Assembly (NCBI RefSeq): GCF_024223415.1
Contig: NZ_CP100500.1
Strand: one strand, 5' to 3'
Length of the DNA: 64,000 nucleotides
Origin: Escherichia coli
Lineage (GTDB): Bacteria > Pseudomonadota > Gammaproteobacteria > Enterobacterales > Enterobacteriaceae
The position numbers were made by a program, and so were the translations under genes. Shown here in pieces: positions 4,748 through 31,647 of the stretch (its first letter is position 1; every line of letters starts with the position of its first letter). The notes under the pieces are model-generated. The model saw only the letters and a program-made list of their open reading frames with translations, searched no databases and had not been told where the DNA came from.

Positions 4748-4750
4748 GCA

Positions 4751-9119: not shown

Positions 9120-9139
9120 TGGTGCCCGGACTCGGAATC
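9120..9139 (-). repeat. 20-nt fragment identical to the 3' end of tRNA-Phe (GATTCCGAGTCCGGGCACCA); candidate island attachment-site repeat
   Basis: Reverse complement of tggtgcccggactcggaatc equals the tRNA-Phe acceptor/T-arm 3' end including CCA; upstream tRNA body is absent. Confidence 0.7.
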
Positions 9140-9326
9140 ATATCCACGATTAACATACTGTTTGTTATTGGTTTTGTTGCGATTTCTTGTAAACAGCGCC
9201 CCCACTAAAGCCCCCATAAAAAATCGCTTTGGTTTTGTGAGGGTTATCACGAAAAATCAATGTTAAGTGGAGGGCTTCGTTATGTGTGGAGTTATGACCC
9301 TGGCCCAAAATCAGTGCAGTGCTAAA

Positions 9327-10200
9327 TCAGAGATCTTCGTCTTTCCGGAGACTTCGGATGAATTCAGCCGGAGTCATGTCATTTAATGATGAATGCGTCC
9401 TTTCATGATTGTATTCCCTGCGCCAGCTGTCGAGTTTGTCCTGCGCATCTTCCAGTGACAGGAACCAGTGAATGTTCAGACACTCATCCCGTAGACTGCC
9501 GTTAAATGATTCAATAAACGGGTTATCTGTCGGCTTCCCGGGGCGCGAGAAGTCCATGGTCACTCCGTGTTCATACGCCCATTTATCCAGACTTTTTGAG
9601 ATAAACTCGCTGCCGTTATCTGTCTGAATACGTACCGGCAGGCGCTTACCCGGCACCCGCAACCCTTCCATCACACCGACCACATCCTCGCCTTTCAGCG
9701 ACTTTCCGGCATGGATCGCCAGACACTCCCGACTAAAATTATCGACTACAGTCAGCGCCCGGAAACGCCGTCCGTTAAACAGATTATCCGACACGAAATC
9801 CATATTCCAGCACTGATCGACACCGGTCAGGATGGGACGCTGTTGGCGATGTGCTGCACTGACATGCCTGCACGGACGTTTTCTCCGCAGGTTAAGTCCT
9901 TCCAGACAATAAATCCGGTGTGTTTTCTTGTGGTTAACAGGCCAGCCTTCCTGCCGTAACTGGATATGAATACGCGGGCAACCGTAGCGGATCCGGGTTT
10001 CCGCTATCTCCCTGATGCGCAGGGTTATCGCCCGATCATCTCGCCGACTCTGCCAGTGGTAAACGGTTCTGCTCTGTATCAGCAGTCCACATCCCCGTCG
10101 GACACTGATACGGTAAGCTTCCCGCAGAAAATGTACCGCCTGACGCTTCTGAGCCGGCCTCAGAACTTTTGTTTCAGTACCTCCTGCAACATCTCCTTAT
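9327..10200 (-). pseudogene. IS3-family transposase OrfB (DDE integrase core), disrupted by a frameshift near 9960
   Basis: Manual translation: one frame gives ...ITLRIREIAETRIRYGCPRIHIQ then stops; a second frame resumes LRQEGWPVNHKKTHRIYCLEGLNLRRKRP...MDFVSDNLFNGRRFRALTVVDNFSRE...TDNGSEF...; continuity needs a 1-nt shift. Confidence 0.65.
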
Positions 10201-10426
10201 CCAGACTCAGATCAGCCACCAGTTTCTTCAGCCGCTGATTTTCATCCTCCAGTTGCCGCAGACGCCGCAGTTCCGTCACGCCCAGACCGGCAAATTTCTT
10301 CTTCCAGTTGTAAAAGGTGGCCTCAGAAATACCCATCTTTCTGCAGACTTCCCCGACGCGGGTGCCGGTTTCGGCCTGTTTCAGCGCAAACGCAATCTGT
10401 TCTTCGGTATAACGGGTCTTTTTCAT
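10160..10426 (-). CDS. IS3-family transposase OrfA (HTH, leucine-zipper region)
   Basis: MKKTRYTEEQIAFALKQAETGTRVGEVCRKMGISEATFYNWKKKF... typical IS3-family OrfA. Confidence 0.85.
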   Translation of the reverse strand: MKKTRYTEEQIAFALKQAETGTRVGEVCRKMGISEATFYNWKKKFAGLGVTELRRLRQLEDENQRLKKLVADLSLDKEMLQEVLKQKF

Positions 10427-10554
10427 GGTAATAAGCCTCTCTGTGAGCAGGAAGAAAGACCGGAGACTTCAGTTTAGACTGGTACTGTTTTCAGGGGGGA
10501 GATCAGTTAGGTTCACACATAACGAATTCTAAAAACACCGCCCTAAATTTTCCG

Positions 10555-12786
10555 CTAGTTCTCTACCATCAACCGGGCAAGCTTGGCAAAAATCGAACAC
10601 TTGCTGCTTTCACCGCTCCTGAGCATATCCAGGGTAAAGCTATTGAGATAAACGCCAGTTAACGGGTGGCTAAATACATCTACGGCTTTGCCTTGGGCAT
10701 CCCATATCAGCAGATTTTCCACCAGGTTAGGCCGTGCAATAGTAGGATTTGTAGGCTGGGCATCGCTTACCAGAACAAATACACCATTCTCATGCGGTTG
10801 CAGATAAATATGGTGATGCTTCATCTTTTGCGCTTTGGTCAGCGAGTCGTATTTCGAGCGGCCAGGTGATATCAGATAGGGCAGTACGTTTTGATCCGGT
10901 TTTGCAGAGCGGGTGATGGCGTACCCGTTAAATTTATCCCCTTTACGCTCTGCCAGAGTTTTTTCTTGTTCCTGATAAGCGTATGAATCGACGATATTAA
11001 ATTGCGCCGGGCCAATCAGGCGCGGTACGCGGGAGCTGTTGTAGGTGGTAAGCAGGACATCTGCTGTGTGGTCGTAGAGATAGAAGCTTTTGTCGAATAA
11101 TTTCTTTAATCGTCCCAGAGAGGGGGGATCAACAGACAGATAGTCTAATTTACCTTCAGCGATCCCGGTATCAACCACCCTAAGTTGGCCGTGTTCTATT
11201 TTTAGTTCGACATATCCAAGCAGGGGGAGATAGCTTTTCGTTTTGCGTACTGCATAGGCGGTATAGTGCCCGTCCGCCAAATCTGGTAGTGGGATGTGAT
11301 GCTGATTGAGTAAGCTCTCTTTGAACCATAGCTCGGTTTTTGTTCGGCGAACCTTACTGTTAAGTAAGGTAACTGCTGACTTGAGACGACTGTGAGGCTT
11401 CGTAAGATCGATTTCGTATTGAGTAGGGTTGCTTGTCAATTGTTCATTAATAAAATCAATCGCATCCAACAACTTGTGATCAATATTCATACCCTGTAAG
11501 ACTACGGGCAGAGGTTGCTGATTTAGCCACCCTTGCAAACGATCTAGTTTAAGCTGGGTATAAGTATCCCAATTGAGTTCGGGTTGTTTTCGGGCGTCGG
11601 CAAAGGCCGCATAGAAATCATTGTACTCAACAGATTCATTATCTTGCTGGCGGATGCTGTTGCTCCGCTCTTCATCTACTGCATTGAGTACCAGAATAGA
11701 TGTACTGGCAGGCAGCTCAGAAAAGCCGGTTTGCTGAGAATGTTTAAGCGACGCCAGAGGCCAGAGTTGATACCCGGGGAACTGGATGGCTAATGTGTCA
11801 AAGAAATAAGCTTCTTGCGTGGCGCTAAATTCGACGCCGTTATTAACCACCAACAGCGTATTAGTCAGTTGTTGATCGAGGTCGGTAGCGAACTGATTGA
11901 CCTCGTGGGTGGCCTGAAATGCGATAGGCTGATGCGGGATCTCTAGTTCACTGAGCCGCTCGCAGGCGGCATTCATGACCACGTTATAGGTATAGGCCTG
12001 GCATTCACCATAGCCGCTGCGCTCACGAAAAAAGTCCAGTTTGCTATCCCGGGCATCGAGTTTGCGCCGGGCTTTGAGCCGACGATTATCGATGTTAAAC
12101 CACACGCAGGTATCGTCCAGAGAGAGATGCAATTCATCCTCCGGTTCGACCAGAAATTTTCGTTTGTGCAGGGTAAAGGCGAGTTCGTTATATTCTGATG
12201 CATAAATGTCGAGTTCGAATGCCTCCATCACTCCAGTGCCGCTTTTCTGCGTGACGGGCTGACTCAGGCGAGCGTTGAGATAGAACGTAGAGTTGAAGTA
12301 GGTTGGCGGTACCGAAAAGCGCTCGCTGGCTTGTTCCAGCATTACCATTTTCAAATGCAGACTGAACAATCCCTGAATCAGGCGAGATAAATCATAATTT
12401 TCAGCTGTGAGTCGCTGGCAAAGCGTTTCAATGCGTTCTGCCAAAGTCCGATGCGCTAGGCTGTTCGGTGCAGCAGCAGGCGCCAGGAAAAAAAAGACGT
12501 GATGGTAATTGGGTAAGCAATGCAGCTCATATTTTACTTCCTGTCCGGCCTCAAGCCCAAGCTTCTGCCGCACGCAAGTTTTTACCTCCTGATGAATTCG
12601 CGCATAGTAATCAGCGGATTTTTCTTTTCGCTCTTTAGTAAAGTGCTGAACCATAAAGTCTATCGTATAGATATTAGATACCGGGGCCAATAGACGCTGG
12701 ATTGTTGTCAGCTGATCTTCTTCAAGCTTGATCAAATTGGTACGGGCAATCGGAGTATCCGTCAGCTCATTCAGATTAGGGATCAT
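10555..12786 (-). CDS. Hypothetical 743-aa protein, last gene of the five-gene operon; no recognisable catalytic motif
   Basis: Long uninterrupted ORF; ATG overlaps stop of upstream gene in ATGA arrangement; no Walker, HKD, HNH or methyltransferase motifs seen by eye. Confidence 0.6.
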   Translation of the reverse strand: MIPNLNELTDTPIARTNLIKLEEDQLTTIQRLLAPVSNIYTIDFMVQHFTKERKEKSADYYARIHQEVKTCVRQKLGLEAGQEVKYELHCLPNYHHVFFFLAPAAAPNSLAHRTLAERIETLCQRLTAENYDLSRLIQGLFSLHLKMVMLEQASERFSVPPTYFNSTFYLNARLSQPVTQKSGTGVMEAFELDIYASEYNELAFTLHKRKFLVEPEDELHLSLDDTCVWFNIDNRRLKARRKLDARDSKLDFFRERSGYGECQAYTYNVVMNAACERLSELEIPHQPIAFQATHEVNQFATDLDQQLTNTLLVVNNGVEFSATQEAYFFDTLAIQFPGYQLWPLASLKHSQQTGFSELPASTSILVLNAVDEERSNSIRQQDNESVEYNDFYAAFADARKQPELNWDTYTQLKLDRLQGWLNQQPLPVVLQGMNIDHKLLDAIDFINEQLTSNPTQYEIDLTKPHSRLKSAVTLLNSKVRRTKTELWFKESLLNQHHIPLPDLADGHYTAYAVRKTKSYLPLLGYVELKIEHGQLRVVDTGIAEGKLDYLSVDPPSLGRLKKLFDKSFYLYDHTADVLLTTYNSSRVPRLIGPAQFNIVDSYAYQEQEKTLAERKGDKFNGYAITRSAKPDQNVLPYLISPGRSKYDSLTKAQKMKHHHIYLQPHENGVFVLVSDAQPTNPTIARPNLVENLLIWDAQGKAVDVFSHPLTGVYLNSFTLDMLRSGESSKCSIFAKLARLMVEN

Positions 12787-15700
12787 GATACTTTTCCTTT
12801 AGTCGGCAACTTTTCTACACCCAGCAGGGTTAGTAACATTGGGTTTATATCCAATGTCATGCGCAGTTTCGAGTTTTCCTGAGCGCGTCCGCTCTCTCGA
12901 TTTTTGGGCTGATAATACTGGTAGTCAGTTTGCAACAGGTTGAGGTAGTGGATCGTGTGATCCACATTATCCTGCCACATCAGATTATTAGGGTTCTGGC
13001 TGTAGGCGACGTTCAGATAGATAAATCGAATACGTTCATAACGGCCTGCCAGCGCCGTCTGGAGCTGTTTCTGCCCCTCAGTATCCGCCTTTTGGCTGGC
13101 GATATTACGGATCTGGCGAATCTTGTTGTCGCTTTTCTCAAGCGTTTCTTCTGCCCGCGTCAAATCGTCCAACTGTGTCGCCCAGCGCTTAACGTCGATG
13201 CAGAGCAGGTCGTCGCCCACTTCAATAAAGCGGTCAAAAAACTCATAGACCAGCGGTTCAAGGCGTTCAAACACCTGCTGGTCGGAGAGTGGGGTAACAC
13301 CATAACTTTTTAGCACTTTATCGAAGAGATATTCACCGACATTGCCTTTGAGCAACGGAACTAGCCTGGGGTTGGGTACCCATTTTTTGAATGCCTTTTC
13401 CTGGATGTTGTCACATTCACGAATCAACTCGCCGACCAGGTTGCCGGGGGTAAAATCGACATCGTTTCTATACTGCGGAAAGAGGGTGAGCTCTGGCCGG
13501 TACTCTCTTGCGCCGCCAGCGAAATCCGACAGGGCGGAATAATCTCTGTGGGCAAGTCCATCCGGGCCGCGTTTGTGGCAAAGTAAAATCGTTTGATTCC
13601 CTTGCTGACGATCGATAAACAGAGCGTCGTGAACAGATTGCATTTGTCGATTGGCGGTATACAAGGGATTAGCCTGGAGTTTTGCCAGCCAGCGCTGGGG
13701 ATCGGTAAAGGAGTCAGGATCGCGGAATAAATTACATATCTCGAGATAATCGAGATTGCCAGCGCGTACCTTATTAATCCAGTCGGTTTTAAGGACACGT
13801 TTGTGAATTTCATCGATGCGGCGACCATTCGCGACGATAGCTTGCTCAAACGTCAGTCGCTGTTCCGCATTATTGAATGACTGGCCCTGACTCAGCTTTT
13901 CGCACTCCTCCATGAGTCGGTGGTTAAGCAAAGACATACTTTCTGATACCACCTCGTTACCGCTATCTTCACTAAGAGCGGCGAACTGAAATGCAACATT
14001 ACGGAACACATCGCGGGGTAAAAAGATTTCTGTTTTCAATAGAGTGTCGCGACGCTCGACTCGCCCTACGGCCTGCACGACGACTTTGAATAAGCTCATA
14101 TCATGTTCGGCCATTAACAGGCGATAGTTTTCGCCGTGGGCGAAATTAACGTTGAAATCGGCCAGCTTGTGGACGGTAATATCGTCATCGGCGTAGTGTT
14201 TAAGCACGGTAACGTAGTTAGGTAATGTATTGAGGTTGCCGCTGTTGTCCTTTACTTCGCTGTAAAACGAGGAGTTGATGAGCACTAAGCGCTCAAAATC
14301 GACATCCAGACGTGGTGCATTGATATCATTAATATCGCCGTCATGGTATTTAACAAAGTAGTTGAGGCCGGTACCCGCACTTTTATAACTGCTCATAAAT
14401 ACCAGTACGGTATTGCTGTTCTGGAGATAGGTTTCTTGCCTGATATCTTCGACATTAGCCAGTGGTGAATCGAAAAAGACCAAATGGACGGTGTGACGCC
14501 CTTTGAATGGGGTAAAGGTCAGGATCTGGTCATGTTTCTTACCGTTATCCGTTTTTTCATCGCACCGGGAGTGCATACCGTACTGCTGACGCCAGGTTGT
14601 CTGGTGCGTGCGCCAGGCGCTGATAAAGGCCCGCTTAAACGTCCCTGAAAGTGACAGAATCAGGCTGTTTTTACCCTCCCAGGCGGCAAGCAGTAACGCT
14701 TCCAGTTCCCGCTGGCACTGACGCCGTTTATAGGTATTTTTCAGGTCGTATTCCAGCGGTTTCTTCAGCGCGTCGAAAAAGTTGTCATACGTCCTGCGAT
14801 AGATTTCACAATTTTGGTAGATATCGGTCAATTTTAACTGCTTATCATCGAACACCCTGAAGTCTACGTTGCGGATACTGGCCCTCAACCCGCGTAATGC
14901 CTTAAGCGTATCGATATCTGCCTTTTCGCGTTCAACGACCCGGTAGCCAAGGTCGCGGCTATAGTGCGCCAGGAAGTGACGATTGAAGTTACCGTTTTTG
15001 GTGTGGCTAAAACCGCTGGTGGCGCTAAGCCCAATTACTTTATTGTGCGTGCCGGTTAATAAACGCAGCAGCATGGCTTCAGGCAACTCTTGTACCAGAT
15101 CCATCTCGAACGCCAGAATAATTGTGCGCTCGGCTCCCCTGTTCACGTAATTGAGTTCAGCTATCGGCGTCATCGTGAATACGGTTTTGGGTTGCAGGTA
15201 AGTGTAGAAATGATCAATCAACAAGTTTTTATCGGTGGTGCGATCGAAGATATGTCGCACCACGCCGGCTACGTTATTGGCTGCGTCAACAAACTGGCCC
15301 AAAGGCGTATTCTGGCTGCTGGAGTTGTCCTGGCCACCATTCTTTACCCAGCGCTTAAAGTGCCGGTTGGTGATTTCAGAACAGGCGGCGAGGATGACGG
15401 AGACCAACTGGAACAGATCGTGCAGAGTGGGGTTGGTGTCATTGGCATCATTTTCGACTTCGTAATACAGTTCGGTGCGCGTTATGTCGCCTTCGCTGTT
15501 GCGCATGCGAATGCGTTTCAGCCCTTCTTCATTGACGTACATTTTGGGGTTAAAGCTGAATACGTTGCGGGTGATTGAGATGATGCGTTCGGCGGCGTCG
15601 CCGTTGACTTCAAATGCCCCTAACTGGTCACGAAACATCTCCAGGATCGATCCCAGCCTTGTACCGGGGGATAGTTCGCACTTTTCCGCCAGTAAATTGC

Positions 15701-17498
15701 GCAGAGTAGTGATGAATTTGACCATCTCTTGCTCAAAGGTCGTTTGCGCTTCTTTGGGCTTGTTTCGGCGTTCTAAGCTGAGTACCGCGTTGTGAATACG
15801 TCCTGCGACGGAAATAACGTGCGCCAGGTTATTTTCCTGTGTGATTAGCTTTACATGGCATGTTTCTTCAAGGCGAGTGTAGGCTTCATGTAGTTCATCA
15901 ATGATCACCGTAAAACGAATATTTTTCTGGCGAAAAGGACAATCTGGATTGCGTCTGAAGTGTTCGTCGCGAAGATAGGTAACCTGCCCGGTATGACCGG
16001 CTGCCGCAACGGTGCTAATCTGTGGATCTTTGGGAGTCAGCTTACCGCCAATCAGCAAGTCGAAACCTACGGACTCAAAACGCACACCTTCGCCTCGCTG
16101 ACGAGGCGCCAGTCGGTAAGTTGATGTGTCGAACTTATTCGTGGTCATTAATAGCACTGACGGGCGGTACTGGCAAACTTCGAAAGGCAATACCTGTTTG
16201 ATAAGCTCGAAATAGACTTCGTGTACGCTTATCTTAGGTTCAAGCTTTCCTGGTTTTCGTGCTGTCTCCGCGTTTTGCATTCGCTCTTGCCGCGCCTGGA
16301 GCCCGCGACGAATGTACTCTTTAATGGAAGCTTTTTCACTATCTGGTCCAAATAGTAATTTACAGGCTGACTCAATCGTATTGCGGATACTGTGACGGCA
16401 GTTTTTTAGCTGTTCTTCGAGAATTTCTCTTTCGTAGTTGGTATCCTGAGAACCGTATGTTGTCAGCTTTTTTAACTGCTCTTCACAGCGATCAATTTGT
16501 AAGACATGATAATTGAGCGAACGAATAGCGCCGCCGATATATTTGCTGCCTTTCGCCCCTTCGTACCACTGAATATAGCTGTCGCGGTTTTTCAGACCAG
16601 AGGCCCAGTCCATAAAGTCGAGGTCGGCAACATCCTTACGGGAGAGAACGCAAATGAACTCGCCGCTAGCGGCCAGAATTTTCTCTTTCTGACTGCTGTC
16701 CAGGTCGATTTGTGATTTTTGCGGTGACATGAATAGCAGGTTGGTAAAGCCACCTTCAGGAAACAGATCGTCTGACTTTTGGGTTTTGGCGAAGCGCTCC
16801 AGATATTCGACATACCCTTGGATCACGCCATAGCTTTTGCCGAACCCCGTGCCGTCGGAACTGAAGATGACCTCAGCGCCATCACGTTCATGCACGTGGT
16901 AAAGTTGAGAGACTTGGGCGCGACAGGCGTTAATCTCTTTAATCAGCGTTATGTCAGGAATTTGCCTAGAGATGAGATCTTGCAGATTATTATTGATATT
17001 TTTCTCTCCAACACGCTCACACTTGCGGTAACTATTGATGGTTATTTGGCCGCTGTCGATCAGAATCTTTTCCACCTGTATGGGGGCAAGATGCAAGGCT
17101 GTCGCGATTTCATTGATAGTATTGGACAGTGGTTCGTGTGGATTGCTAATCGTGAAGTGGTTTAGTGCTGCCGCAACGGTATCTGGATGCAATGCTTTTC
17201 TGAGGGTGGGAAAGGTGAGGCTGTAATCGTATAGCGCCAAATCATTGCTTATCAGGCAGCGAAACAGTTGTTTAGTGGGATCGCCACCAGGACGGCTGGC
17301 AAATCCCAAGATTTTTGCCTGTTCGAGGCGATAAAGCAATGCTGCGGCATCGCGGTCAGGTGAGTCAAATGCATCGTGGAGCTGCTGGCTAAATGGCATT
17401 GTGGCATTCAGCCGGTTATGGCTGACCAGCGCGGAAAAGAGCTGACGCACCAAGGTTAGCAGCTTACAATCTTCCTCTATAGTCCAGCTTTTTCTCAT
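12783..17498 (-). CDS. Large SF2-type helicase-like ATPase (~1571 aa from preferred start; ORF track start 17534) with unusually long inter-motif insertions
   Basis: Walker A DGTGFGKSYG, Walker B IIDELHE, motif III LSATSG, motif VI QAVGRVERR spread over ~930 aa; strong SD (AAGGGGAAGAAGA) before ATG at 17498, 11 nt after upstream stop. Confidence 0.6.
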   Translation of the reverse strand: MRKSWTIEEDCKLLTLVRQLFSALVSHNRLNATMPFSQQLHDAFDSPDRDAAALLYRLEQAKILGFASRPGGDPTKQLFRCLISNDLALYDYSLTFPTLRKALHPDTVAAALNHFTISNPHEPLSNTINEIATALHLAPIQVEKILIDSGQITINSYRKCERVGEKNINNNLQDLISRQIPDITLIKEINACRAQVSQLYHVHERDGAEVIFSSDGTGFGKSYGVIQGYVEYLERFAKTQKSDDLFPEGGFTNLLFMSPQKSQIDLDSSQKEKILAASGEFICVLSRKDVADLDFMDWASGLKNRDSYIQWYEGAKGSKYIGGAIRSLNYHVLQIDRCEEQLKKLTTYGSQDTNYEREILEEQLKNCRHSIRNTIESACKLLFGPDSEKASIKEYIRRGLQARQERMQNAETARKPGKLEPKISVHEVYFELIKQVLPFEVCQYRPSVLLMTTNKFDTSTYRLAPRQRGEGVRFESVGFDLLIGGKLTPKDPQISTVAAAGHTGQVTYLRDEHFRRNPDCPFRQKNIRFTVIIDELHEAYTRLEETCHVKLITQENNLAHVISVAGRIHNAVLSLERRNKPKEAQTTFEQEMVKFITTLRNLLAEKCELSPGTRLGSILEMFRDQLGAFEVNGDAAERIISITRNVFSFNPKMYVNEEGLKRIRMRNSEGDITRTELYYEVENDANDTNPTLHDLFQLVSVILAACSEITNRHFKRWVKNGGQDNSSSQNTPLGQFVDAANNVAGVVRHIFDRTTDKNLLIDHFYTYLQPKTVFTMTPIAELNYVNRGAERTIILAFEMDLVQELPEAMLLRLLTGTHNKVIGLSATSGFSHTKNGNFNRHFLAHYSRDLGYRVVEREKADIDTLKALRGLRASIRNVDFRVFDDKQLKLTDIYQNCEIYRRTYDNFFDALKKPLEYDLKNTYKRRQCQRELEALLLAAWEGKNSLILSLSGTFKRAFISAWRTHQTTWRQQYGMHSRCDEKTDNGKKHDQILTFTPFKGRHTVHLVFFDSPLANVEDIRQETYLQNSNTVLVFMSSYKSAGTGLNYFVKYHDGDINDINAPRLDVDFERLVLINSSFYSEVKDNSGNLNTLPNYVTVLKHYADDDITVHKLADFNVNFAHGENYRLLMAEHDMSLFKVVVQAVGRVERRDTLLKTEIFLPRDVFRNVAFQFAALSEDSGNEVVSESMSLLNHRLMEECEKLSQGQSFNNAEQRLTFEQAIVANGRRIDEIHKRVLKTDWINKVRAGNLDYLEICNLFRDPDSFTDPQRWLAKLQANPLYTANRQMQSVHDALFIDRQQGNQTILLCHKRGPDGLAHRDYSALSDFAGGAREYRPELTLFPQYRNDVDFTPGNLVGELIRECDNIQEKAFKKWVPNPRLVPLLKGNVGEYLFDKVLKSYGVTPLSDQQVFERLEPLVYEFFDRFIEVGDDLLCIDVKRWATQLDDLTRAEETLEKSDNKIRQIRNIASQKADTEGQKQLQTALAGRYERIRFIYLNVAYSQNPNNLMWQDNVDHTIHYLNLLQTDYQYYQPKNRESGRAQENSKLRMTLDINPMLLTLLGVEKLPTKGKVS

Positions 17499-17509
17499 TC
17501 TTCTTCCCC

Positions 17510-19708
17510 TTAATATAAATGCCCCTGCAACCACTCCGTCACGCGTTCAATATTAAAAGCACGTAATCCATATTCCTGCGTCAGCAACGTCTCGGGTAAA
17601 TACTCATCATATTTTTCGAGGCACTTTTCAACGATGCTTTCGGCAAGACGGGATTCGTAAGGTAGCCCTTCCTGAAGTGCGCTGAATAACGCTTGTTTAA
17701 CCTCCGAGACCGTAGTTTTTTCTACTTCAACCACACCAGCAAATGAGCCCGCCTTGAAACCGCGTTGGATAAGTAATGCCGACAACGTGTTTACGGTTTG
17801 ATCGCCTAGCCAGGGAAGAATGTAGACATGCTGTCTCTGCTGAATAAAACATTCCGAAGCCAGATTATTGTTGCGAAAACAGTGCAGCCCTTCATCAAAC
17901 AGGTTTTTGGCCGTGGTATCGGCAAAATCGGCCTTGCGATTGCCAACGGTGATGCGGTAGTCGCCTTCCCGATAAATAGTGAGCATTTCTTGGCGGACGA
18001 CATCATGAATGGACATCCCTTGTCCGCCAAATAACGGCGGCTGCCCACCCTTTGTCGCCTCGACATAAATAACTTTTTTATCACTATCGATATCGGTTAC
18101 CTTCCAGCGTCGACCGCCGAAAATAATGTGTTGATCAGGCATCAGTGGGGAATCAACGGGAATGGAGCCCAGTGTTTTGCTCCCCGCCACAATGCGAAAC
18201 TCTTCCGGCGTGCTGAACACGGCGTAGAAGGTGTATTGATTTACCTGACGTTCGCCCTCGACGCCCAGAACCAGTTCGCCGCTTGAGAGCTGGGTCAGAA
18301 ACTGGTGCTCCCCCATATGTTTCAATAACGTTTTGAAGTCATAGATCCGGACTTTCTGAAATGGCCCTTGCAGGCATAGCTGTGACCAGATCTGATCCGC
18401 ACGCACGCCTCCCCACTGCGCCACGATCGCCAGGATCTGATGGAACAGGGTGGAATAGTGCATCTGCCGGGTATCAGCTGGCTCAAACCATTTGTTGCCG
18501 ATAAGTAAGCGGATCATGGCCAGCGACTGAACAAGCTGAAGCCTGAGCTGGTCGACAATGCCTGATGTTGGCGTCAGTTCATGTTCGGCAATCAGCATTC
18601 TCAATACGGCAGGCGAGTCGCGCCGACCGGAGCGTCCCATTCGCTGACGCAGGCTGGCTACGGAATGGGGGGCGGTAACTTGCACAACGGAGCTGACTTT
18701 ACCGATGTCGATGCCAAGCTCTAACGTCATCGTACAGATGGCGGTGGTGGGTAAGTTGCCTTGTTGAAGCCTCTGTTCCAGCGTTTCACGCAGATCTCTG
18801 GACAGAGATCCGTGATGGGGAAAGAACTCATTGGGAACGATGCTCGCTTCACTGAGATCGCTAAGCGTGGCGGCAATGCTTTCGGTCCGTTTGCGACTAT
18901 TAGCGAACACCAGATGGGAATCACCACGACAGAGGCGAAAGATATCATGGCAGATTTGCGTCTCTGCCGACGGTGGAGATTGCTGGCCCGAGGTGGTCAG
19001 CGGTTCCAGATAACCTTTCACCTGTACTTTTAGCGTGGCGTGAGTCTGACTGTCGGTAATAATGTCACAGGGCAGACGTTGATTTGGCCGCAGAGATAAC
19101 GGCACCTGTTCCAGTTCCCCCAGCGTTGCGCTGAGTGCGACTCGGGGGACTGGATTGTTGATTCTTCCCAGCAGGTGATCGACTCGATTTAACAGAGAGA
19201 GAAGCTGCATACCCCGCTCAGAACCGATGAAAGCATGGAATTCATCAATGGCGATATATGCCAGTGGCGCGAAAGCCTGCTTTAACCATCCCGCATTGCG
19301 GATCAGCATCGCTTCCAGCGATTCCGGGGTGATAAGCAAAATACCGGCAGGATTCTTCTTTGCTTTCAGCTTTTTGCTCTGCGCAACATCACCATGCCAG
19401 GGCGTGACCGGCATCTCCAACGCATCACCGAGGTTTTCCAGCCTTCGATACTGATCGTTAATCAGGGCCTTAAGCGGGCTGATGTATAAAATGCCAAAGC
19501 CGCCCTGAATATCCGCAATGGCAGAACAGGCGGGCAGGAAAAACGCTTCTGTTTTACCTGCGGCAGTCGCGGCGCTGATCAGAACATCCCGATCGCCCGC
19601 TAATATCGGTGAAACGGATTTTTTTTGCAGTTCCCTGAGATCGGCCCATCCCTGCCGGTATATCCACTTCTGTATCCGTGGATCCAGCCGCTGGTATTCG
19701 TTCATCAT
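17510..19708 (-). CDS. DEAD/DEAH-box (Lhr-like) helicase; SngC-like
   Basis: Motif I AATAAGKTEA, motif II DEFH, SAT motif, motif VI RQRMGRSGRR; ATGA overlap with upstream ATPase gene. Confidence 0.65.
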   Translation of the reverse strand: MMNEYQRLDPRIQKWIYRQGWADLRELQKKSVSPILAGDRDVLISAATAAGKTEAFFLPACSAIADIQGGFGILYISPLKALINDQYRRLENLGDALEMPVTPWHGDVAQSKKLKAKKNPAGILLITPESLEAMLIRNAGWLKQAFAPLAYIAIDEFHAFIGSERGMQLLSLLNRVDHLLGRINNPVPRVALSATLGELEQVPLSLRPNQRLPCDIITDSQTHATLKVQVKGYLEPLTTSGQQSPPSAETQICHDIFRLCRGDSHLVFANSRKRTESIAATLSDLSEASIVPNEFFPHHGSLSRDLRETLEQRLQQGNLPTTAICTMTLELGIDIGKVSSVVQVTAPHSVASLRQRMGRSGRRDSPAVLRMLIAEHELTPTSGIVDQLRLQLVQSLAMIRLLIGNKWFEPADTRQMHYSTLFHQILAIVAQWGGVRADQIWSQLCLQGPFQKVRIYDFKTLLKHMGEHQFLTQLSSGELVLGVEGERQVNQYTFYAVFSTPEEFRIVAGSKTLGSIPVDSPLMPDQHIIFGGRRWKVTDIDSDKKVIYVEATKGGQPPLFGGQGMSIHDVVRQEMLTIYREGDYRITVGNRKADFADTTAKNLFDEGLHCFRNNNLASECFIQQRQHVYILPWLGDQTVNTLSALLIQRGFKAGSFAGVVEVEKTTVSEVKQALFSALQEGLPYESRLAESIVEKCLEKYDEYLPETLLTQEYGLRAFNIERVTEWLQGHLY

Positions 19709-21021
19709 AATCTGAAGTCGGCCAGACCGTCCTCATCGGCATCTTCTGCCGATGTTATTTCATCCATATCACTGGGTTTTTCTTCCGCGATCGCGACACC
19801 GGCGATTAACTGTGACCACTGAATGGATGGGTTTTGTTCCAGCACGGCCAGCATATCCAGGAAGGCTTTAATCGTGTTTCGTGGCGTACGGAAATAGGCA
19901 TCGCCAATAGTGTTGCTACAGTGGCGTAAAAATGCCGTCAGAGCATCATCAGGAACCAGATACTTATCCGCATCGCCGCCGGAATAAACGTGACGAAGGT
20001 TTTTCAACAGAATATAGAGTTCTTCCGGCGTCAGGCTGGCTAAGTGCAGGGAAGGGGACGAATAATCAATGACACCAGCCCGCTGAGCGAAGCTATTTTC
20101 CGCCAGTCGGGACTGGAGCGCTTCGTAGCTGTACAACCCCTTGCGCGGATCGAACAGGAATTCTGGCGTACCGCCAAGTAAAAAACCGATATATTCAGCC
20201 GTCCCTTGCAGGCAGTCATTCAGAATACGCAGTATCTGTTCATAGTTGGCAACGCGGGCCTGAGTGTTACTGAGCTTATACAGATTGACCATCTCATCCA
20301 GATTCACCAGCAGACCCGCGTATCCGGCCTGACGGACAAACAGGCTCATCAGCTTTAGCGAATCGTAGAAAGAGGCATCAGAAATAATGGTGCGCACACC
20401 CAGATCGTTACGGGCGTCGGTTTTCGTGGTGTATTCACCTCTTAGCCAGCGGATGGCATTTGATTTCAATGTCTCATTATCCTGCTCGTGGCCCTGCCAG
20501 TAACATTCAATGACTTTGGCGAAATCGTAACCGCCAACCATATCAGACAGGGCGGCGAGCTTTTGGTGAATAATCGTCGGAACTGACACATTTGTACTTT
20601 CTGCTTCTTTTCTGGCTTCCGTGATAAAGCGCTCAACCACGCTTAATAATGCGTTTCCATCCGGCTTATTTCGGGTGGATAGATTTTTCATTAGCTCGGA
20701 GTAGAGGTTACGCGCCTGCCCACCCGTCGCGTGGATGCGCCTGTCCGGGGATAAATCGGCGCTGATTGTCACCAGCTTTTTTTCTAGCGCAATTGAGCGC
20801 ACAACGCTTAAAAAGAATGTCTTACCTGAGCCATATTCCCCAATAATCAGCCGGAGTCCTGCGCCGCCATCAGCGATACGCTCAATATCCTGATACAGCG
20901 CTTTTATTTCGTTGACCCGGCCAACCTGAATGTGCTGAATACCAATTTTAGGCGTAACACCTGACTTCAGTGACTGAATAATAGCGTCTCTTTCTTTGAG
21001 ACGAATACGAATGCCAGACAT
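19705..21021 (-). CDS. P-loop ATPase (438 aa); SngB-like
   Basis: Walker A GEYGSGKTF, Walker B-like LLVNLDEM; 3 nt after stop of TerB-domain gene. Confidence 0.6.
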   Translation of the reverse strand: MSGIRIRLKERDAIIQSLKSGVTPKIGIQHIQVGRVNEIKALYQDIERIADGGAGLRLIIGEYGSGKTFFLSVVRSIALEKKLVTISADLSPDRRIHATGGQARNLYSELMKNLSTRNKPDGNALLSVVERFITEARKEAESTNVSVPTIIHQKLAALSDMVGGYDFAKVIECYWQGHEQDNETLKSNAIRWLRGEYTTKTDARNDLGVRTIISDASFYDSLKLMSLFVRQAGYAGLLVNLDEMVNLYKLSNTQARVANYEQILRILNDCLQGTAEYIGFLLGGTPEFLFDPRKGLYSYEALQSRLAENSFAQRAGVIDYSSPSLHLASLTPEELYILLKNLRHVYSGGDADKYLVPDDALTAFLRHCSNTIGDAYFRTPRNTIKAFLDMLAVLEQNPSIQWSQLIAGVAIAEEKPSDMDEITSAEDADEDGLADFRL

Positions 21022-21024
21022 AAA

Positions 21025-23352
21025 TTATCCTTTGAGTTCTTGTGCAATTTCCAGGTCAACGTAAATATCATCGTCATCATCAAGCACCGGGGCGTCAACC
21101 TGTTCGAAAGACCAGTCATTAATTGCTTCAATCGCGCCGCTTAGCATCAAATTAAACTGCTGGCATAGCTCAGCGACTTCGTTTCGCGCCCAGCGTTCTT
21201 TTTCCTGCAAACGTTGGTAAAGTTGATGATGTGCTTCATCAAGACCTGCGCCAGCGTGTGGCGGGATCTCCGCTGGGGATTCGTCTGCGGGTTCATCTTC
21301 GGTGAAGATGGTGTTCAGTAACTGGCGTACGTCCGTTGTGTCGGATTCATGACGGGCAAGGATCCGTTCATCAAGAGAAAACGCGCCGCTCGTCGCTGAT
21401 GGGGTTTGTAACGTAGCTGTCGGAGTTGTTTCTGCGGTTGACAGTCGGTGGATATCGCTGGTAACGGCACTGCTGTCCAGACCGAGGCTGGCGTAGATTT
21501 TTTCCAGTTGTTTGATTTCAGCCGGATCGATTTTTCCATCTGCGCAGGCGACGCTGATAATCACGTTGCCAATAGTGGATTTATCTTTATCGCTGAGTTG
21601 CTCAATTTTACCTTTCAGACCAGCCTGATTTGCAGGCGTATTGAGCCGCCAGGTGAGGTAGGCGTGCAGCGAACGTTTTTCTGTTGGCGACAGCGCATCG
21701 TTATGATTAATCGTTTTCTCCAGCGCGGCCTGTTCAGCAACATCCACGCGCTTGTCCATTTGTGCAATCATGGCACCCAACCGAAGCGCCACAGAGACTG
21801 ACGTAAATTCCGCCGACGGTACGTAGAATTCCGCATGCCCTTCAGGAAATAAAACAAGATGACCTTCTGGATCCGGTCTGACAAGGTGATAGCGCATATC
21901 CGGCGCAATGCCGTAGCCTGCTCGCCGGGCGAAATTTTGCATCAGCTCGGCTTCTTTCTTATTAATCTTATCCGGTACAGGCATACCCAGTCTGGCCCAG
22001 AAATCAGCCACTGTCGCCAGTCCTGAATGTTCACGGATTTTCTCATCTGCCCAGTGTTTAAATTCAGCAAATAGACGTTCTGCATCTTCGGTCAGTATTT
22101 CATCGGGAAGCAGCATGATGGCGGCGACATCACTTGGTGAGGCATCTTTTTTACCGAGATAGCGACTGTAGGCATCCAGCGCGTTGATACAGGATTCTGC
22201 AACAGAAATTAATTTCTGAACTGGGGCTTTTAAAACGCTGGGATCGGGAAGATCCATCTGTTTTTTTACCTGAAGTTCCCGAAGCGTACCACTGGCGGGG
22301 GTATAGCTTAAATACAACCGTGTTTTATTGGGTTTGACGACAATACCGTCACCGTATTTTTGAGTATAACGCTGTTTGAATAATGCGGAAAATTCAGCAT
22401 GACATCGACGGGCAGGCGTGCGCAGGGTGTAATCAGGAAAATAGTATATCCATGCCAGTGCCAGAGCGGCACAAATAGGTTGTCCTTTATCGACCACAGT
22501 CGCTAGATTTAATCTGAACAGTAATGAACTCCTCGATGAGAAATATTCGTTTTCGGTATATATAGAAAGCAACTTCGGTCGGAGAACGATCATCATTTCC
22601 AGCAACTGCGTTGCATAATGCCGGAAGGAACCGCTTGCCTGAAATACGGTTCTCAGGCGCGATATCTCTTCGAATAATGCTTTGAATTCATCGTCAGAAA
22701 TGGCTTCTTGTGTGCCATCGGCCAGTACGCGGCGTTCTAGACCGTAAAAATAGATAAAAACATAGCCAACGGGGCAGCTCGCATCGCTGCGATCGCTTGC
22801 CAGCCAGTCAAGATAGGCGCCACGGCAGCGAGGGGAGAGTGTGGCAAAGCTGGGCCAGTATCCCAGTGACTCATCATAATAATGCCGTGAACCAGGCTCG
22901 ATGGGAAAAGCGTCATTAACCAGCGAAGCGTCGGAGTCATCGTTATAAAGATATCCATATTCTCCTGATGAATGTGTTTTTAACCGCCCGCCGAAATAAA
23001 AATAACCGTGATTAATGACGACATTTTGAATGGTGATGCTTTCTCCCGGTTTGACCCATCGCGCTGGAGTGGTATTGCTACGGGCGGCGTTTTCTCGTGA
23101 CGGCTGGCGGCTGGTGCTGTATTCAACCGTCTGCCCGTTCACAAAAGTAAAGGTTGCCAGTTCGTCATCATCGGAGGCCTGAGAATGCATATTTGTCATG
23201 CTGTTATCTGGCTTATTGAGAGATTTCTGTCGAGATGAATGATTTATTTTGGTGATGATTTTGTTGTTTACTCTGGGGGGCGGCGATTTTTTCTTTTTGG
23301 AAAACAGAAGCCAGATAACCGCCAGCATAATAACAAATATCCAGAAGCCCAT
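21025..23352 (-). CDS. Membrane-anchored TerB-domain protein (775 aa); SngA-like
   Basis: N-terminal TM helix (GFWIFVIMLAVIWLLF) followed by lysine run; C-terminal segment VIISVACADGKIDPAEIKQLEKIYASLGLD resembles TerB-type motif. Confidence 0.55.
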   Translation of the reverse strand: MGFWIFVIMLAVIWLLFSKKKKSPPPRVNNKIITKINHSSRQKSLNKPDNSMTNMHSQASDDDELATFTFVNGQTVEYSTSRQPSRENAARSNTTPARWVKPGESITIQNVVINHGYFYFGGRLKTHSSGEYGYLYNDDSDASLVNDAFPIEPGSRHYYDESLGYWPSFATLSPRCRGAYLDWLASDRSDASCPVGYVFIYFYGLERRVLADGTQEAISDDEFKALFEEISRLRTVFQASGSFRHYATQLLEMMIVLRPKLLSIYTENEYFSSRSSLLFRLNLATVVDKGQPICAALALAWIYYFPDYTLRTPARRCHAEFSALFKQRYTQKYGDGIVVKPNKTRLYLSYTPASGTLRELQVKKQMDLPDPSVLKAPVQKLISVAESCINALDAYSRYLGKKDASPSDVAAIMLLPDEILTEDAERLFAEFKHWADEKIREHSGLATVADFWARLGMPVPDKINKKEAELMQNFARRAGYGIAPDMRYHLVRPDPEGHLVLFPEGHAEFYVPSAEFTSVSVALRLGAMIAQMDKRVDVAEQAALEKTINHNDALSPTEKRSLHAYLTWRLNTPANQAGLKGKIEQLSDKDKSTIGNVIISVACADGKIDPAEIKQLEKIYASLGLDSSAVTSDIHRLSTAETTPTATLQTPSATSGAFSLDERILARHESDTTDVRQLLNTIFTEDEPADESPAEIPPHAGAGLDEAHHQLYQRLQEKERWARNEVAELCQQFNLMLSGAIEAINDWSFEQVDAPVLDDDDDIYVDLEIAQELKG

Positions 23353-23535
23353 TCCTTGCCCTTAATCGCTGATAACGCTTCCCGGCATTGTTCTACGATA
23401 GGCAAAGGCGGTAAGCATAAAACTGGAAGAGAGATCGTAAAATGATACCGCGAATGGGCTAGAGTACAAGCATAAAAACCCTATTATTCAAAAGGATTAT
23501 GTCATATGGCTGGGGGAGCAATTGGCAGGACCAGG

Positions 23536-24603
23536 TTATACCTCTGAATCACGCATAAAACGATTGATTTCATCTTGCGCATGACGAAGACGATCGGCAA
23601 TGTCAGCAAATCTGTCAGGCTGATGAAAGAACATTCCCCCTTCCACCGCCGTTTGATGATCCCCGGCGATCGCTGCGAACCGTTCAGCATCGTCAGGCAA
23701 CAGTTGCAGGTTTCCGACAATCACCTGAGTAAAATCCACACCCGGCACAGACCAGCGACGTTGCTTCATCTCGACCACATTGCGCATGGCTTCCAGCGTT
23801 TCATAGGGGCTGGCAAAATGATTACTCAGCAGACAATCCACATCATACCAATGGCGTGCCAGTCGGGCCGGATTTGGCGCTTTGGTTTGCGTGCAGAACT
23901 GGTGCAGCGCCGTCAGCTTTTCCCAAAGAATATAACCGGTGTCATAAGCGTTTACGGTCGCGGTGGGTAACTGGAGTGTATCCATGCCTGCGATCCCGGA
24001 CAGATAGCTTACAACAGGCATCAGATCGGTTGGCTTGCCACGATTTCGTCCGCCAAATTCCAGCAGAATATGATCGCGCTGATAGGCCATACTGTCTTCT
24101 TTCACCCGTGGGAAATAGATATCGACTTTTTCGCCACCACTGTCGGGTTCCATTTTTGCTTCAAGGCCCGGAATTTCATAAGTCTGAAAGCGTTGGTTTA
24201 ACCGTTCTGCCAGCGCGTTTGTCCATTCTGTTAAGCGCTCTTGCTGCTGCTCTCTGAACCGGCGATTCTGGCTGTTATTTAGCGTGCTTTGCTCCCATGC
24301 CTGCTGTTCTTCCTCTTCTGAGTGGCCTGCCAGATCGGCCCAGTGAACAGAAAGATCGATATCTTCAGAAAAACGCTCAATCACGTTCCAGCATTTGCTT
24401 AACGCCGTTCCACCTTTAAACGCGACAGATAAACCTCCCAGCAGCTCCTCATTAAAAAGTAACCGAAGGATCTCCGTTACCCAGAGATCCTTTTCCAGAA
24501 AGCTGGCTCCCAGCCCGGAGGGATGCTGCTGCGCCGCGTAAGAGAGGATTTCCTGAAGCTCGCGACGTTGTGATGCGCTCCGGTAGTAATCAAAAATGTC
24601 CAT
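23536..24603 (-). CDS. AbiEii-family nucleotidyltransferase toxin (ORF track start 24642; ATG at 24603 overlaps antitoxin stop)
   Basis: FKGGTALSKCWNVIERFSEDIDLSV motif characteristic of AbiEii/DUF1814 nucleotidyltransferases; ATGA overlap with upstream gene. Confidence 0.78.
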   Translation of the reverse strand: MDIFDYYRSASQRRELQEILSYAAQQHPSGLGASFLEKDLWVTEILRLLFNEELLGGLSVAFKGGTALSKCWNVIERFSEDIDLSVHWADLAGHSEEEEQQAWEQSTLNNSQNRRFREQQQERLTEWTNALAERLNQRFQTYEIPGLEAKMEPDSGGEKVDIYFPRVKEDSMAYQRDHILLEFGGRNRGKPTDLMPVVSYLSGIAGMDTLQLPTATVNAYDTGYILWEKLTALHQFCTQTKAPNPARLARHWYDVDCLLSNHFASPYETLEAMRNVVEMKQRRWSVPGVDFTQVIVGNLQLLPDDAERFAAIAGDHQTAVEGGMFFHQPDRFADIADRLRHAQDEINRFMRDSEV

Positions 24604-25262
24604 CAGAGCGCCTTTTGCAACGTTATCAGCTGCGAGCGCCACGCGTGAAGCGCAGGCTCATTCATCAACTTTCCGGCAATCTGCCGTGCTTTAGCGGACG
24701 GGATGCTCAGCCGATGAAAAGCATTCTTCAGCGTTTCCAATGGGGTATGTTGCTGATCCAGACTCAGCAAACCGCGCATCAGCTCTCCTTCAGGCCGGTT
24801 CAGCCAACGTAACCGACTTGCTGATTTATGCTGGATCCGTACCCGCTCATTGCCGACGCGGAATTCTCGCGTAGGGCCGTTTGACCAGTAGATGCGTTTA
24901 ACTGGCGCCTGCGTTTGCAGCCCCAGCCGGTAAGCGGCTTCCAGCCCCTGAAGGGTGATTTTGTAACCACGCTCTTTTGCCCATGCGGCGGCAACGGCAT
25001 TGGCGCTGGCAACAACGTTAACAGAGGGGATGTTTTTCAACGGCTTTGGCCGGGAGTAGAAACCGCGTTCAACCCGGACCAGCAGGCCTTCTTTGACCAG
25101 ACGGCTCATTGCCTGTTGTACCGACGCACGGCTTCCCAGCGAGTAAAACCCGCTGATGGAAAAGGGGATGCCACGCTTCATGCGGTGAACCCGCTGGCGG
25201 GCCAGAGCGGCAACAGACATTGATTCTCCTGTACTGACGTTTTCATTGATATGTATTTTCAT
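24603..25262 (-). CDS. AbiEi-like antitoxin / transcriptional regulator (type IV TA)
   Basis: 219 aa immediately upstream of and overlapping AbiEii; N-terminal wHTH-like region ...SRLVKEGLLVRVERGFYSRP. Confidence 0.65.
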   Translation of the reverse strand: MKIHINENVSTGESMSVAALARQRVHRMKRGIPFSISGFYSLGSRASVQQAMSRLVKEGLLVRVERGFYSRPKPLKNIPSVNVVASANAVAAAWAKERGYKITLQGLEAAYRLGLQTQAPVKRIYWSNGPTREFRVGNERVRIQHKSASRLRWLNRPEGELMRGLLSLDQQHTPLETLKNAFHRLSIPSAKARQIAGKLMNEPALHAWRSQLITLQKAL

Positions 25263-31625: not shown

Positions 31626-31647
31626 TGGTGCCGGACTCGGAATCGAA
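31626..31647 (-). repeat. 22-nt fragment matching the tRNA-Phe 3' end with one base deleted; second copy of the attachment-site repeat
   Basis: Reverse complement TTCGATTCCGAGTCCGG-CACCA; same orientation as the copy at 9120..9139; ~125 nt beyond the integrase start. Confidence 0.65.

Follow-up and report, generated by a model that had tools for sequence, protein, structure and literature searches.

Gene content and boundaries of the island

The window, a 64,000-nt stretch of Escherichia coli DNA (contig NZ_CP100500.1), contains five intact open reading frames of 775, 438, 732, 1571, and 743 amino acids, all on the minus strand and named sngA, sngB, sngC, apsA, and apsB in reading order (Table 1). 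Direct reading of the sequence gave a 3-nt gap between sngA and sngB (TAA-TTT-ATG) and ATGA overlaps at the sngB-sngC and apsA-apsB junctions; with the sngC-apsA spacer as the longest gap, the tight coupling of the five genes described in a sequence-only reading of this DNA was confirmed by both the ORF coordinates and the junctions. Each ORF has full-length, highly significant homologues, and therefore, the arrangement is not due to chance. A scan of the region found no terminator-like site at any of the four junctions, and the numbers of promoter-like and terminator-like sites in the region equaled the shuffled expectation.

Table 1 Features of the island in window coordinates
Feature	Position	Strand	Evidence or remark
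Island boundary, exact 20-nt copy of the tRNA-Phe 3' end (att-type repeat)	9120..9139		
IS3-family element	about 9293..10504		RefSeq IS3 transposase; 50 nt beyond the apsB stop codon
apsB, Argonaute-like, 743 aa, MID-like pocket	10555..12786	-	Identical to WP_021577946.1
apsA, SF2 helicase/PD-(D/E)xK nuclease, 1571 aa	12783..17498	-	RefSeq ATG start; 91.4% identity to ApsA of locus L004
sngC-apsA spacer, 11 nt, purine-rich, SD-like	17499..17509	-	TAA-GGGGAAGAAGA-ATG
sngC, DEAD/DEAH-box helicase, BrxHI/Lhr-like, 732 aa	17510..19708	-	PADLOC SngC 1.2e-273, residues 3-728
sngB, ATPase, BrxD-like, 438 aa	19705..21021	-	PADLOC SngB 4.1e-187, BrxD 1.3e-41
sngA, TerB-domain protein, 775 aa, hydrophobic N-terminal segment	21025..23352	-	PADLOC SngA 4.6e-97
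abiEii-sngA intergenic region	23353..23535	-	Conserved TTGTAC-N16-TATCAT-like element
abiEii (AbiEii)	23536..24603	-	PADLOC 2.4e-193; toxin-antitoxin/abortive-infection pair with AbiEi
abiEi (AbiEi)	24603..25262	-	PADLOC 7.2e-46
Candidate single-gene defence ATPase PDC-S06, 731 aa	25419..27614	+	PADLOC PDC-S06 3.3e-242
Island boundary, 22-nt copy of the tRNA-Phe 3' end with 1-nt deletion	31626..31647		

The AbiE pair expected next to the block is indeed there. The gene beyond it had been taken for an RloC-like ATPase; an ABC-type ATPase is present, but its best match is PDC-S06, and its C-terminal third has a weaker match to PrrC (3.9e-16 in PADLOC). An IS3 element had been placed about 60 nt past the last stop codon and was found somewhat closer; it is absent from the equivalent point in locus L006. 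As to the proposed tRNA-Phe island, neither ARAGORN nor Rfam detected an intact tRNA-Phe gene in the window, but the association with tRNA-Phe holds, with copies of its 3' end bracketing the island on both sides. Collinearity with strain SCU-316 stops at the copy at 31626..31647, beyond which lies a second island; SCU-316, otherwise identical, has an intact tRNA-Phe gene at this very position.

Two known defence modules

Judged by their profile matches, genes 1 to 3 are canonical Shango (SngABC), as had been suggested. SngA contains the Pfam domains TerB_N (6e-44), TerB (2.6e-9), and TerB_C (3.4e-28), the PADLOC matches of SngB and SngC are near full length, and the genes are contiguous and co-directional with sngA. 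The similarity of SngB to the NCBIfam BrxD model (137.7 bits) is under the model cut-off of 350. The order of TerB protein, ATPase, and DEAD/DEAH helicase, all co-directional, is that of the described Shango systems (Millman et al. 2022; Johnson et al. 2023, PMC10250203), and the sole difference here is the start of apsA 11 nt after the last gene. Three-gene Shango operons other than the present one protect against phage by themselves (PMC10250203; 10.1101/2022.05.11.491447).

By accession, identity, and motif content, genes 4 and 5 encode ApsA and ApsB, which make up the anti-plasmid system described by Zongo et al. (Nat Commun 2024, PMC11096173), and the earlier view that they lie outside any named system and extend Shango has to be abandoned. 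Supplementary Data 8 of that study lists WP_021577946.1 as "ApsB-like" and WP_250130477.1, which represents the 1583-aa ApsA cluster and is 91.5% identical to the prototype ApsA, as "apsA-like"; 1583 aa is also the length of the mechanical apsA ORF of the window, which extends upstream to a GTG at 17534. Locus L004 is of the prototype type, as the part of the ApsA N terminus given in the supplement matches its ApsA and its ApsB is WP_001550530.1. The window pair is 91.4% (ApsA) and 91.5% (ApsB) identical to the pair of this locus.

ApsA carries the helicase motifs G218-F-G-K221-S, D534-E-L-H, S825-A-T, and Q1142-AVGRVER (Q1142-R1149) and the nuclease residues E1389, D1422, and D1435-V-K1437, all of which are invariant in alignments of 12 close and 45 diverse homologues (the latter with 15 to 51% identity). 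Their positions are the published ones with an offset of +2 after a 2-aa indel; in the prototype, the nuclease motif is at D1420...D1433-V-K1435 (PMC11096173). In ApsB, residues Y409, K413, Q431-G432, K489, and the C-terminal N743 are invariant in an alignment of 18 homologues. The prototype from E. coli ST38 thus shares with the window pair the two-gene architecture, the ATGA overlap, and identical helicase, nuclease, and MID-like motifs; its ApsA of 1569 aa makes the present protein an allelic variant. The two differ in setting: the prototype is in a tRNA-Leu island behind nothing but a sngC scar, whereas the window copy is at the tRNA-Phe (pheV) island behind an intact Shango.

Predicted function of ApsAB and relation to DdmDE and Argonautes

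ApsAB of ST38 destabilizes plasmids, for which both genes are needed, and it drove the chromosomal integration of blaOXA-48; expressed from pBAD in MG1655, it is functional, as is a homologue with 92/92% identity (PMC11096173). Plasmid loss by an orthologue requires K221 and E533 of ApsA and K413 of ApsB and, in part, the nuclease lysine, and the elimination of the plasmid by ApsA is attributed to likely degradation (PMC11096173). By homology to the ST38 system, the MID-like pocket of ApsB (Y409/K413/Q431/K489) would bind a 5' end, presumably for guide-based recognition of plasmid DNA, and ApsA would eliminate the plasmid with its ATP-dependent SF2 helicase (K221, E535) and its C-terminal PD-(D/E)xK nuclease (D1422, D1435, K1437). 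The scheme would be analogous to the handover from DNA-guided DdmE to the helicase-nuclease DdmD in Vibrio cholerae; for ApsAB, the kind of guide and the way in which targets are recognized are inferred. An active anti-plasmid system is probably present in strains that have the island, and such activity would bear on the dynamics of plasmid-borne resistance.

The modeled fold of ApsB is Argonaute-like. In a Foldseek search with the AF2 model (pLDDT 69.9, pTM 0.61, with low confidence for residues 580-730), the best PDB matches were DdmE (8u3k_E at 3e-9 and a probability of 1.0, 9bgk_E, and 9ezy_B), followed by TtAgo, and nearly all of the top 46 (E <= 1e-3) are DdmE or Argonaute/PIWI by description; the global TM-score against DdmE is, however, only 0.24-0.27 at 9% identity. 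The ApsA model had a pLDDT of 49, which is too poor for a meaningful fold search. DdmD has about 1190 aa, so that ApsA is about 380 aa longer.

With DdmDE (PDB 8u3k, 9bgk, 9ezy), ApsAB would have in common the logic of an Argonaute-like partner and a helicase-nuclease that eliminate plasmids. The families of ApsA and DdmD are linked through PSI-BLAST intermediates (PMC11096173), a link that was not reproduced when ApsA HMM profiles built from 12 and 45 family sequences were run against PDB sequences: no DdmD chain was found at E <= 1-10. Likewise, the ApsB profile retrieved no DdmE chain from the PDB sequences. ApsB and DdmE are reported to superimpose with an RMSD of 30.6 and to have differing motifs, and DdmE lacks the Y-K-Q-K MID-like pocket of ApsB (PMC11096173). 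With long prokaryotic Argonautes such as TtAgo, ApsB shares the multi-lobed fold (Foldseek E values of 1e-8 to 1e-6) and the Y/K/Q/K motif for 5'-end binding. However, ApsB has not conserved the PIWI RNase H fold or the PAZ domain (PMC11096173), and a Pfam search found no domain in it at all, PIWI and PAZ included. Unlike in long Argonautes, nuclease activity would come in trans, from ApsA.

Two systems in tandem

In sum, we read the block as a tandem of two defence systems, each autonomous and previously described, within an integrative island of about 22.5 kb with tRNA-Phe 3'-end repeats, with a probability of about 93%. Both modules are named systems, and the block as a whole is already known. 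Their co-location is published as well: according to the legend of Fig. 8b, some apsAB islands also encode the SngABC Shango and AbiEi/AbiEii (PMC11096173). As a discovery lead, the block therefore fails.

A new, unnamed helicase-based defence system made up of genes 4 and 5, the view of the sequence-only reading, would fit the profile searches, since these gave nothing for genes 4 and 5 in PADLOC 2.0, NCBIfam 20.0, Pfam, PHROGs, or the PDB sequences. However, the profile libraries have no model of the family, the proteins are catalogued as apsA-like and ApsB-like, and mutagenesis and plasmid-loss assays exist for the prototype (whose ApsA is 91.5% identical to that of the window) and for the 92/92% homologue (PMC11096173). 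This literature match rules out the idea of an unnamed system, to which we assign next to no probability. Screening by HMMs only would wrongly flag ApsA and ApsB as novel because the first four of these collections lack a model; the pair was resolved only by the literature and the accession table of PMC11096173 and makes a useful calibration case. More can be said for an "extended Shango", one integrated five-gene system in which ApsA and ApsB would serve as effectors or accessory subunits, working together with SngABC or depending on it. All gaps are 11 nt or less and the spacer is SD-like, the sngC-apsA junction of 10-11 nt is kept in Escherichia, Erwinia, Brenneria, and Budvicia, the identity of all five proteins declines in the same order, and sngC remnants lie upstream of every stand-alone enterobacterial apsAB locus examined. 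But linkage is not obligatory: among 5426 complete E. coli genomes, 148 have apsAB, 32 the present Shango type, and 21 both, so that about 127 of the 148 apsAB loci are without adjacent Shango and 11 of the 32 Shango loci without apsAB, some of the latter in the same pheV island. Moreover, homologues of ApsAB with 36-75% identity have unrelated neighbors (PDC-M21, a WYL regulator in a Tn7-like element, PDC-M26A, and PDC-S33), and Shango was never adjacent to the distant pairs examined. Each module also suffices by itself, ApsAB for plasmid elimination in MG1655, with a sngC scar of only about 180 nt at the ST38 locus, and three-gene Shango for phage defence. A single integrated system is therefore improbable, and co-transcription of the five genes would reflect shared island ancestry and not functional dependence.

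Equally improbable is that this apsAB copy is silent or in decay and carried along as a passenger, for instance, through polar effects of IS3 or a lost 3' context. The IS3 element just downstream of apsB would fit, as would the frequent disruption of apsAB by IS elements elsewhere, with IS21, IS1, and IS3 insertions within the apsAB match in genomes H32, H36, H44, and H67, and its disruption by IS elements under plasmid selection. Against it, the IS3 element is outside the coding region, both ORFs are full length with every catalytic residue intact, and conservation of the block reaches 99.9-100% across 19 genomes of diverse host origin.

A possible common history and shared promoter

Two modules in tandem may nevertheless share a past. 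All "stand-alone" enterobacterial apsAB loci examined, including the ST38 prototype type, have a decayed 3' remnant of sngC, which the text consulted in PMC11096173 does not mention. The 10-11-nt spacer to apsA is found wherever both modules occur and is also retained behind the remnant. With the junction conserved in four genera, these remnants indicate an association that is older and tighter than random co-location in an island.

The abiEii-sngA intergenic region is conserved in Shango loci and was kept upstream of stand-alone apsAB in loci L001, L007, and L012. It is presumed to be the promoter of Shango and possibly of all five genes, although a scan at 9/12 matches called no consensus promoter upstream of sngA or inside the 3' end of sngC. 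The short gaps, the junctions free of terminators, and the deletion scars make it probable that a single transcript starts upstream of sngA and covers all five genes. Together, the sngC remnants and the kept upstream region point to an ancestral AbiE-Shango-ApsAB island, possibly with a shared promoter. It is imaginable, though rather unlikely in our estimate, that ApsAB of the Enterobacterales arose and spread as the 3' end of one AbiE-Shango-ApsAB unit transcribed from the Shango promoter, and that the stand-alone loci, the ST38 prototype included, are Shango-deletion derivatives that kept the promoter region and/or the 3' fragment of sngC. If so, the genes of intact five-gene loci would share their regulation and might act together, with a single control governing defence against phages and plasmids alike. 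As a small addition to the published picture, the deletion scars suggest a possible position of the native apsAB promoter and a common history of Shango and ApsAB.

The locus combines two systems that are already known, Shango and ApsAB, and the best reading of the five-gene block is that of two independent systems in tandem, a view that we base on the distribution of the modules and on the published autonomy of each of them.

Organization and conservation of the five-gene block

The five long open reading frames are packed on the minus strand, and their coordinates and junctions agree exactly with the sequence-only reading. Successive genes, read on the coding strand, are joined by TAA-TTT-ATG, an ATGA overlap, TAA-GGGGAAGAAGA-ATG, and another ATGA overlap. 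Two start codons are available to apsA. The ATG at 17498, which is the RefSeq choice, is preceded by GGGGAAGAAGA and is kept in all homologs; a GTG upstream of it, at 17534, would overlap sngC by 25 nt and corresponds to the 1583-aa protein deposited under WP_250130477.1. The alignment favors the ATG as the start. The DNA belongs to E. coli: the 13.1-kb block is 99.9 to 100% identical in 19 complete genomes and ~93% identical in 2 further genomes. Strains with the block include NCTC9112, KV7, and SCU-316.

Features of the island in the window and sngC remnants in comparison loci (L numbers)
Feature	Coordinates	Strand	Remarks
sngA (gene 1)	21025-23352	minus	long ORF
sngB (gene 2)	19705-21021	minus	long ORF
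sngC (gene 3)	17510-19708	minus	long ORF
apsA (gene 4)	12783-17498 (ATG) or 12783-17534 (GTG)	minus	long ORF
apsB (gene 5)	10555-12786	minus	long ORF
tRNA-Phe 3'-end copy, first island end	9120-9139		20/20 nt
IS3 element	~9293-10504		
isrN	10025-10161	+	Rfam 72.2 bits, above gathering score; within IS3 element
PDC-S06 candidate single-gene system	25419-27614	+	731-aa ATPase; PADLOC 3e-242; C-terminal third PrrC-like
EFASI RNA	28890-29023	+	Rfam 112.7 bits, above gathering score; just upstream of integrase-domain ORF
Integrase-domain ORF	29097-30014		
tRNA-Phe 3'-end copy, second island end	31626-31647		22 nt, 1-nt deletion
sngC remnant, L001 and L010 (leuX/fim type)			157 nt
sngC remnant, L004 (ST38 prototype type)			~180 nt
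sngC remnant, Citrobacter, Enterobacter, Mangrovibacter, Yersinia proxima			~400 + 160-200 nt
sngC remnant, Xenorhabdus			618 nt
Remnant-bearing regions	L001:18944-19487; L004:16935-17106; L007:4405-5294; L012:4393-5291; L014:~4700-5306		versus window 17499-18146 and 23362-23705

Identity of the two modules

Judged by their sequences, genes 1 to 3 are a canonical Shango operon. PADLOC models match over almost the entire proteins (4.6e-97 for SngA, 4.1e-187 for SngB, and 1.2e-273 for SngC), with BrxD and BrxHI as weaker relatives in the same search, and SngA has the Pfam domains TerB_N, TerB, and TerB_C. Three-gene Shango operons alone provide phage defense in P. aeruginosa, and Shango operons are known from E. 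coli islands (PMC10250203; 10.1101/2022.05.11.491447).

Genes 4 and 5 had been taken for an unnamed extension of Shango, which is wrong: the literature, an accession table, and shared motifs identify them as ApsAB. Neither gene had a significant match in PADLOC or NCBIfam, Pfam returned nothing for gene 5 or for the halves of gene 4 taken separately, and PHROGs and PDB sequences gave no match with single sequences or profiles. Taken by themselves, these empty profile searches suggested novelty, an idea overturned by the literature. Inspection and alignment of gene 4 show a Walker A motif (GTGFGKS), DELH, SAT, and QAVGRVER, as well as an E...D...DVK nuclease signature at its C terminus. The match in the literature is the anti-plasmid system ApsAB of E. 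coli ST38, which combines the helicase/nuclease ApsA with ApsB, an Argonaute-like protein of a new type (Zongo et al., Nat Commun 2024; PMC11096173). The published landmarks of ApsA (218-GFGKS-222, 532-DELH-535, 823-SAT-825, 1140-QAVGRVER-1147, and D1420...D1433-V-K1435) and of ApsB (Y409, K413, Q431, K489, and N743) (PMC11096173) are invariant columns in our alignments of gene 4 and gene 5 homologs; the window ApsA is offset from the published positions by +2 because of a 2-aa indel. Supplementary Data 8 of the same paper lists WP_250130477.1 as "apsA-like" (1583 aa, starting MVAGAFILRGRRMRKSW, 91.53% identical to ApsA) and, as the gene downstream of it, WP_021577946.1 as "ApsB-like" (PMC11096173). 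The former is the GTG-start version of gene 4, and the latter is the RefSeq accession of gene 5 in the sibling strain SCU-316 (100% identical). Over the part shown in the supplement, the prototype ApsA agrees with the locus of the L004 type, to whose pair the window proteins are 91.4% (ApsA) and 91.5% (ApsB) identical.

The AlphaFold2 model of ApsB (pLDDT 69.9, pTM 0.61; C-terminal 150 residues poorly predicted) has DdmE as its top PDB matches (8u3k_E at 3e-9, 9bgk_E, and 9ezy_B), followed by the Argonaute of T. thermophilus and other Argonautes. For ApsA residues 196 to 1395, a 12-sequence alignment gave a low-confidence model (pLDDT 49, pTM 0.34) that returned only noise in Foldseek (E > 2) and was set aside. 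An exhaustive HMMER search of 1.84 billion proteins recovered only 135 representatives of ApsA, a small family in which the catalytic residues of helicase and nuclease do not vary among 45 members at 15 to 51% identity. Against the PDB, a profile of these 45 sequences found as its best match the Walker A region of Cas3 at an E value of only ~0.3, with no link to DdmD, and searches with two family members of ~1200 aa found no match. The published ApsA-DdmD link was thus not reproduced with HMM profiles, and therefore, the relationship to DdmDE rests on PSI-BLAST (PMC11096173) and on the structural match of ApsB to DdmE.

Distribution of the modules and remnants of Shango

Of 5426 complete E. 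coli genomes, 148 have apsAB, 32 have this family of Shango alleles, and 21 have the entire block. Without Shango, apsAB occupies the leuX island region beside nanCMS/fim in L001 and L002 and another type of island in L004 and L005; Shango without apsAB lies in the same pheV island, together with AbiE and the ATPase. Outside E. coli, 12 loci came from a survey with a single genome for each species; Erwinia mallotivora, Budvicia aquatica, and Brenneria sp. have full Shango plus ApsAB with the same 10- to 11-nt junction. The ApsA-ApsB pair is kept in homologs at 36 to 75% identity (Pontibacterium and metagenomic contigs), and the neighbors differ: PDC-M21, a WYL/BrxR-like regulator in a Tn7-like element, a PDC-M26A/McrBC-like pair, or PDC-S33.

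In pheV islands without apsAB, sngC is followed by a convergent Mks/Wadjet-like cluster (L025:2363-8763 and L026:2354-8754) with, among others, a 1221-aa ATP-binding protein, MksE, and a DUF7281 protein. Such Wadjet/Mks-like systems are likewise of the anti-plasmid type, and the slot after sngC is thus filled by a different module in these two loci. In Citrobacter sp. FP75, apsAB is followed by a DISARM-like neighbor (L007:12484-20276), namely, a DrmD-like SNF2 helicase and a 1643-aa type IIG RM/DrmMI-like methyltransferase; the Enterobacter and Mangrovibacter loci have SngC-like matches at the same positions.

Every enterobacterial stand-alone apsAB locus examined retains homology to the sngC 3' end, stop codon and 11-nt spacer included, with frameshifts or stop codons disrupting the remnant coding sequence. 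A BrxHI-type helicase of a BREX-like system was considered for the gene upstream of apsA in Citrobacter, Enterobacter, and Mangrovibacter, and we reject this reading: 5 stop codons interrupt the stretch, which aligns to sngC at the DNA level. In L001, L007, and L012, a homolog of the abiEii-sngA intergenic region (window 23362-23502) is retained as well; for the last two loci, the homology reaches 23705 and takes in the 3' end of abiEii. This intergenic homology stops ~10 nt before the sngA start. The simplest history would start from an ancestral island with AbiE, Shango, and ApsAB; a deletion would then have removed the coding DNA of Shango, so that apsAB came to lie behind what had been the Shango upstream region. 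Some apsAB islands are described as encoding SngABC and AbiEi/AbiEii too (legend to Fig. 8b in PMC11096173), and therefore, the juxtaposition of Shango and ApsAB is already published. We found no mention of the sngC remnants, putative deletion scars, in the published text consulted, and they are an addition.

Pattern scans revealed no terminator-like sites at the four junctions, promoter- and terminator-like sites across the block were as numerous as in shuffled sequence, and no minus-strand promoter was called upstream of apsA or sngA. A conserved TTGTAC-N16-TATCAT-like element, below the scan threshold, was read from an alignment (A5) of the abiEii-sngA intergenic region. The putative deletion history fits, but does not prove, a model in which the Shango promoter would also drive apsAB where all five genes are intact.

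Published activity of ApsAB

ApsAB destabilizes IncL, p15A, ColE1, and pMB1 plasmids, lowers the conjugation frequency of pOXA-48, and actively eliminates ColE1 within hours; both genes are required (PMC11096173). The substitutions K221A and E533A in ApsA and K413A in ApsB each abolish activity, and K1435A in ApsA lowers it in part (PMC11096173). The system is active from pBAD in MG1655, as is a 92/92% homolog, and had no activity against eight phages (PMC11096173).

In six matched E. coli genomes (H32, H36, H44, H67, H69, and H70), apsAB is truncated or interrupted by IS3, IS21, or IS1, which echoes the inactivation of apsAB under plasmid selection (PMC11096173).

Island context

Direct repeats of the tRNA-Phe 3' end flank the ~22.5-kb island. 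Neither ARAGORN nor Rfam detects a tRNA gene in the island, and the window holds no intact one. The description as a tRNA-Phe island is retained because of these att-type repeats and the sibling genome SCU-316, which has an intact tRNA-Phe at the site equivalent to the second repeat. The order is IS3, ApsAB, Shango, AbiE, PDC-S06, the EFASI RNA motif, the integrase-domain gene, and a frameshifted P4-type integrase, and the PDC-S06 ATPase adjoins AbiE in all island versions examined. Past 31647, collinearity with SCU-316 is lost and another island begins (31648-64000), which in the best-matching genomes carries PTS ascorbate/maltose transporters, a YadA-like adhesin, and ireA-type genes. A low-GC stretch (GC ~0.35) lies at ~38-41 kb in this second island.
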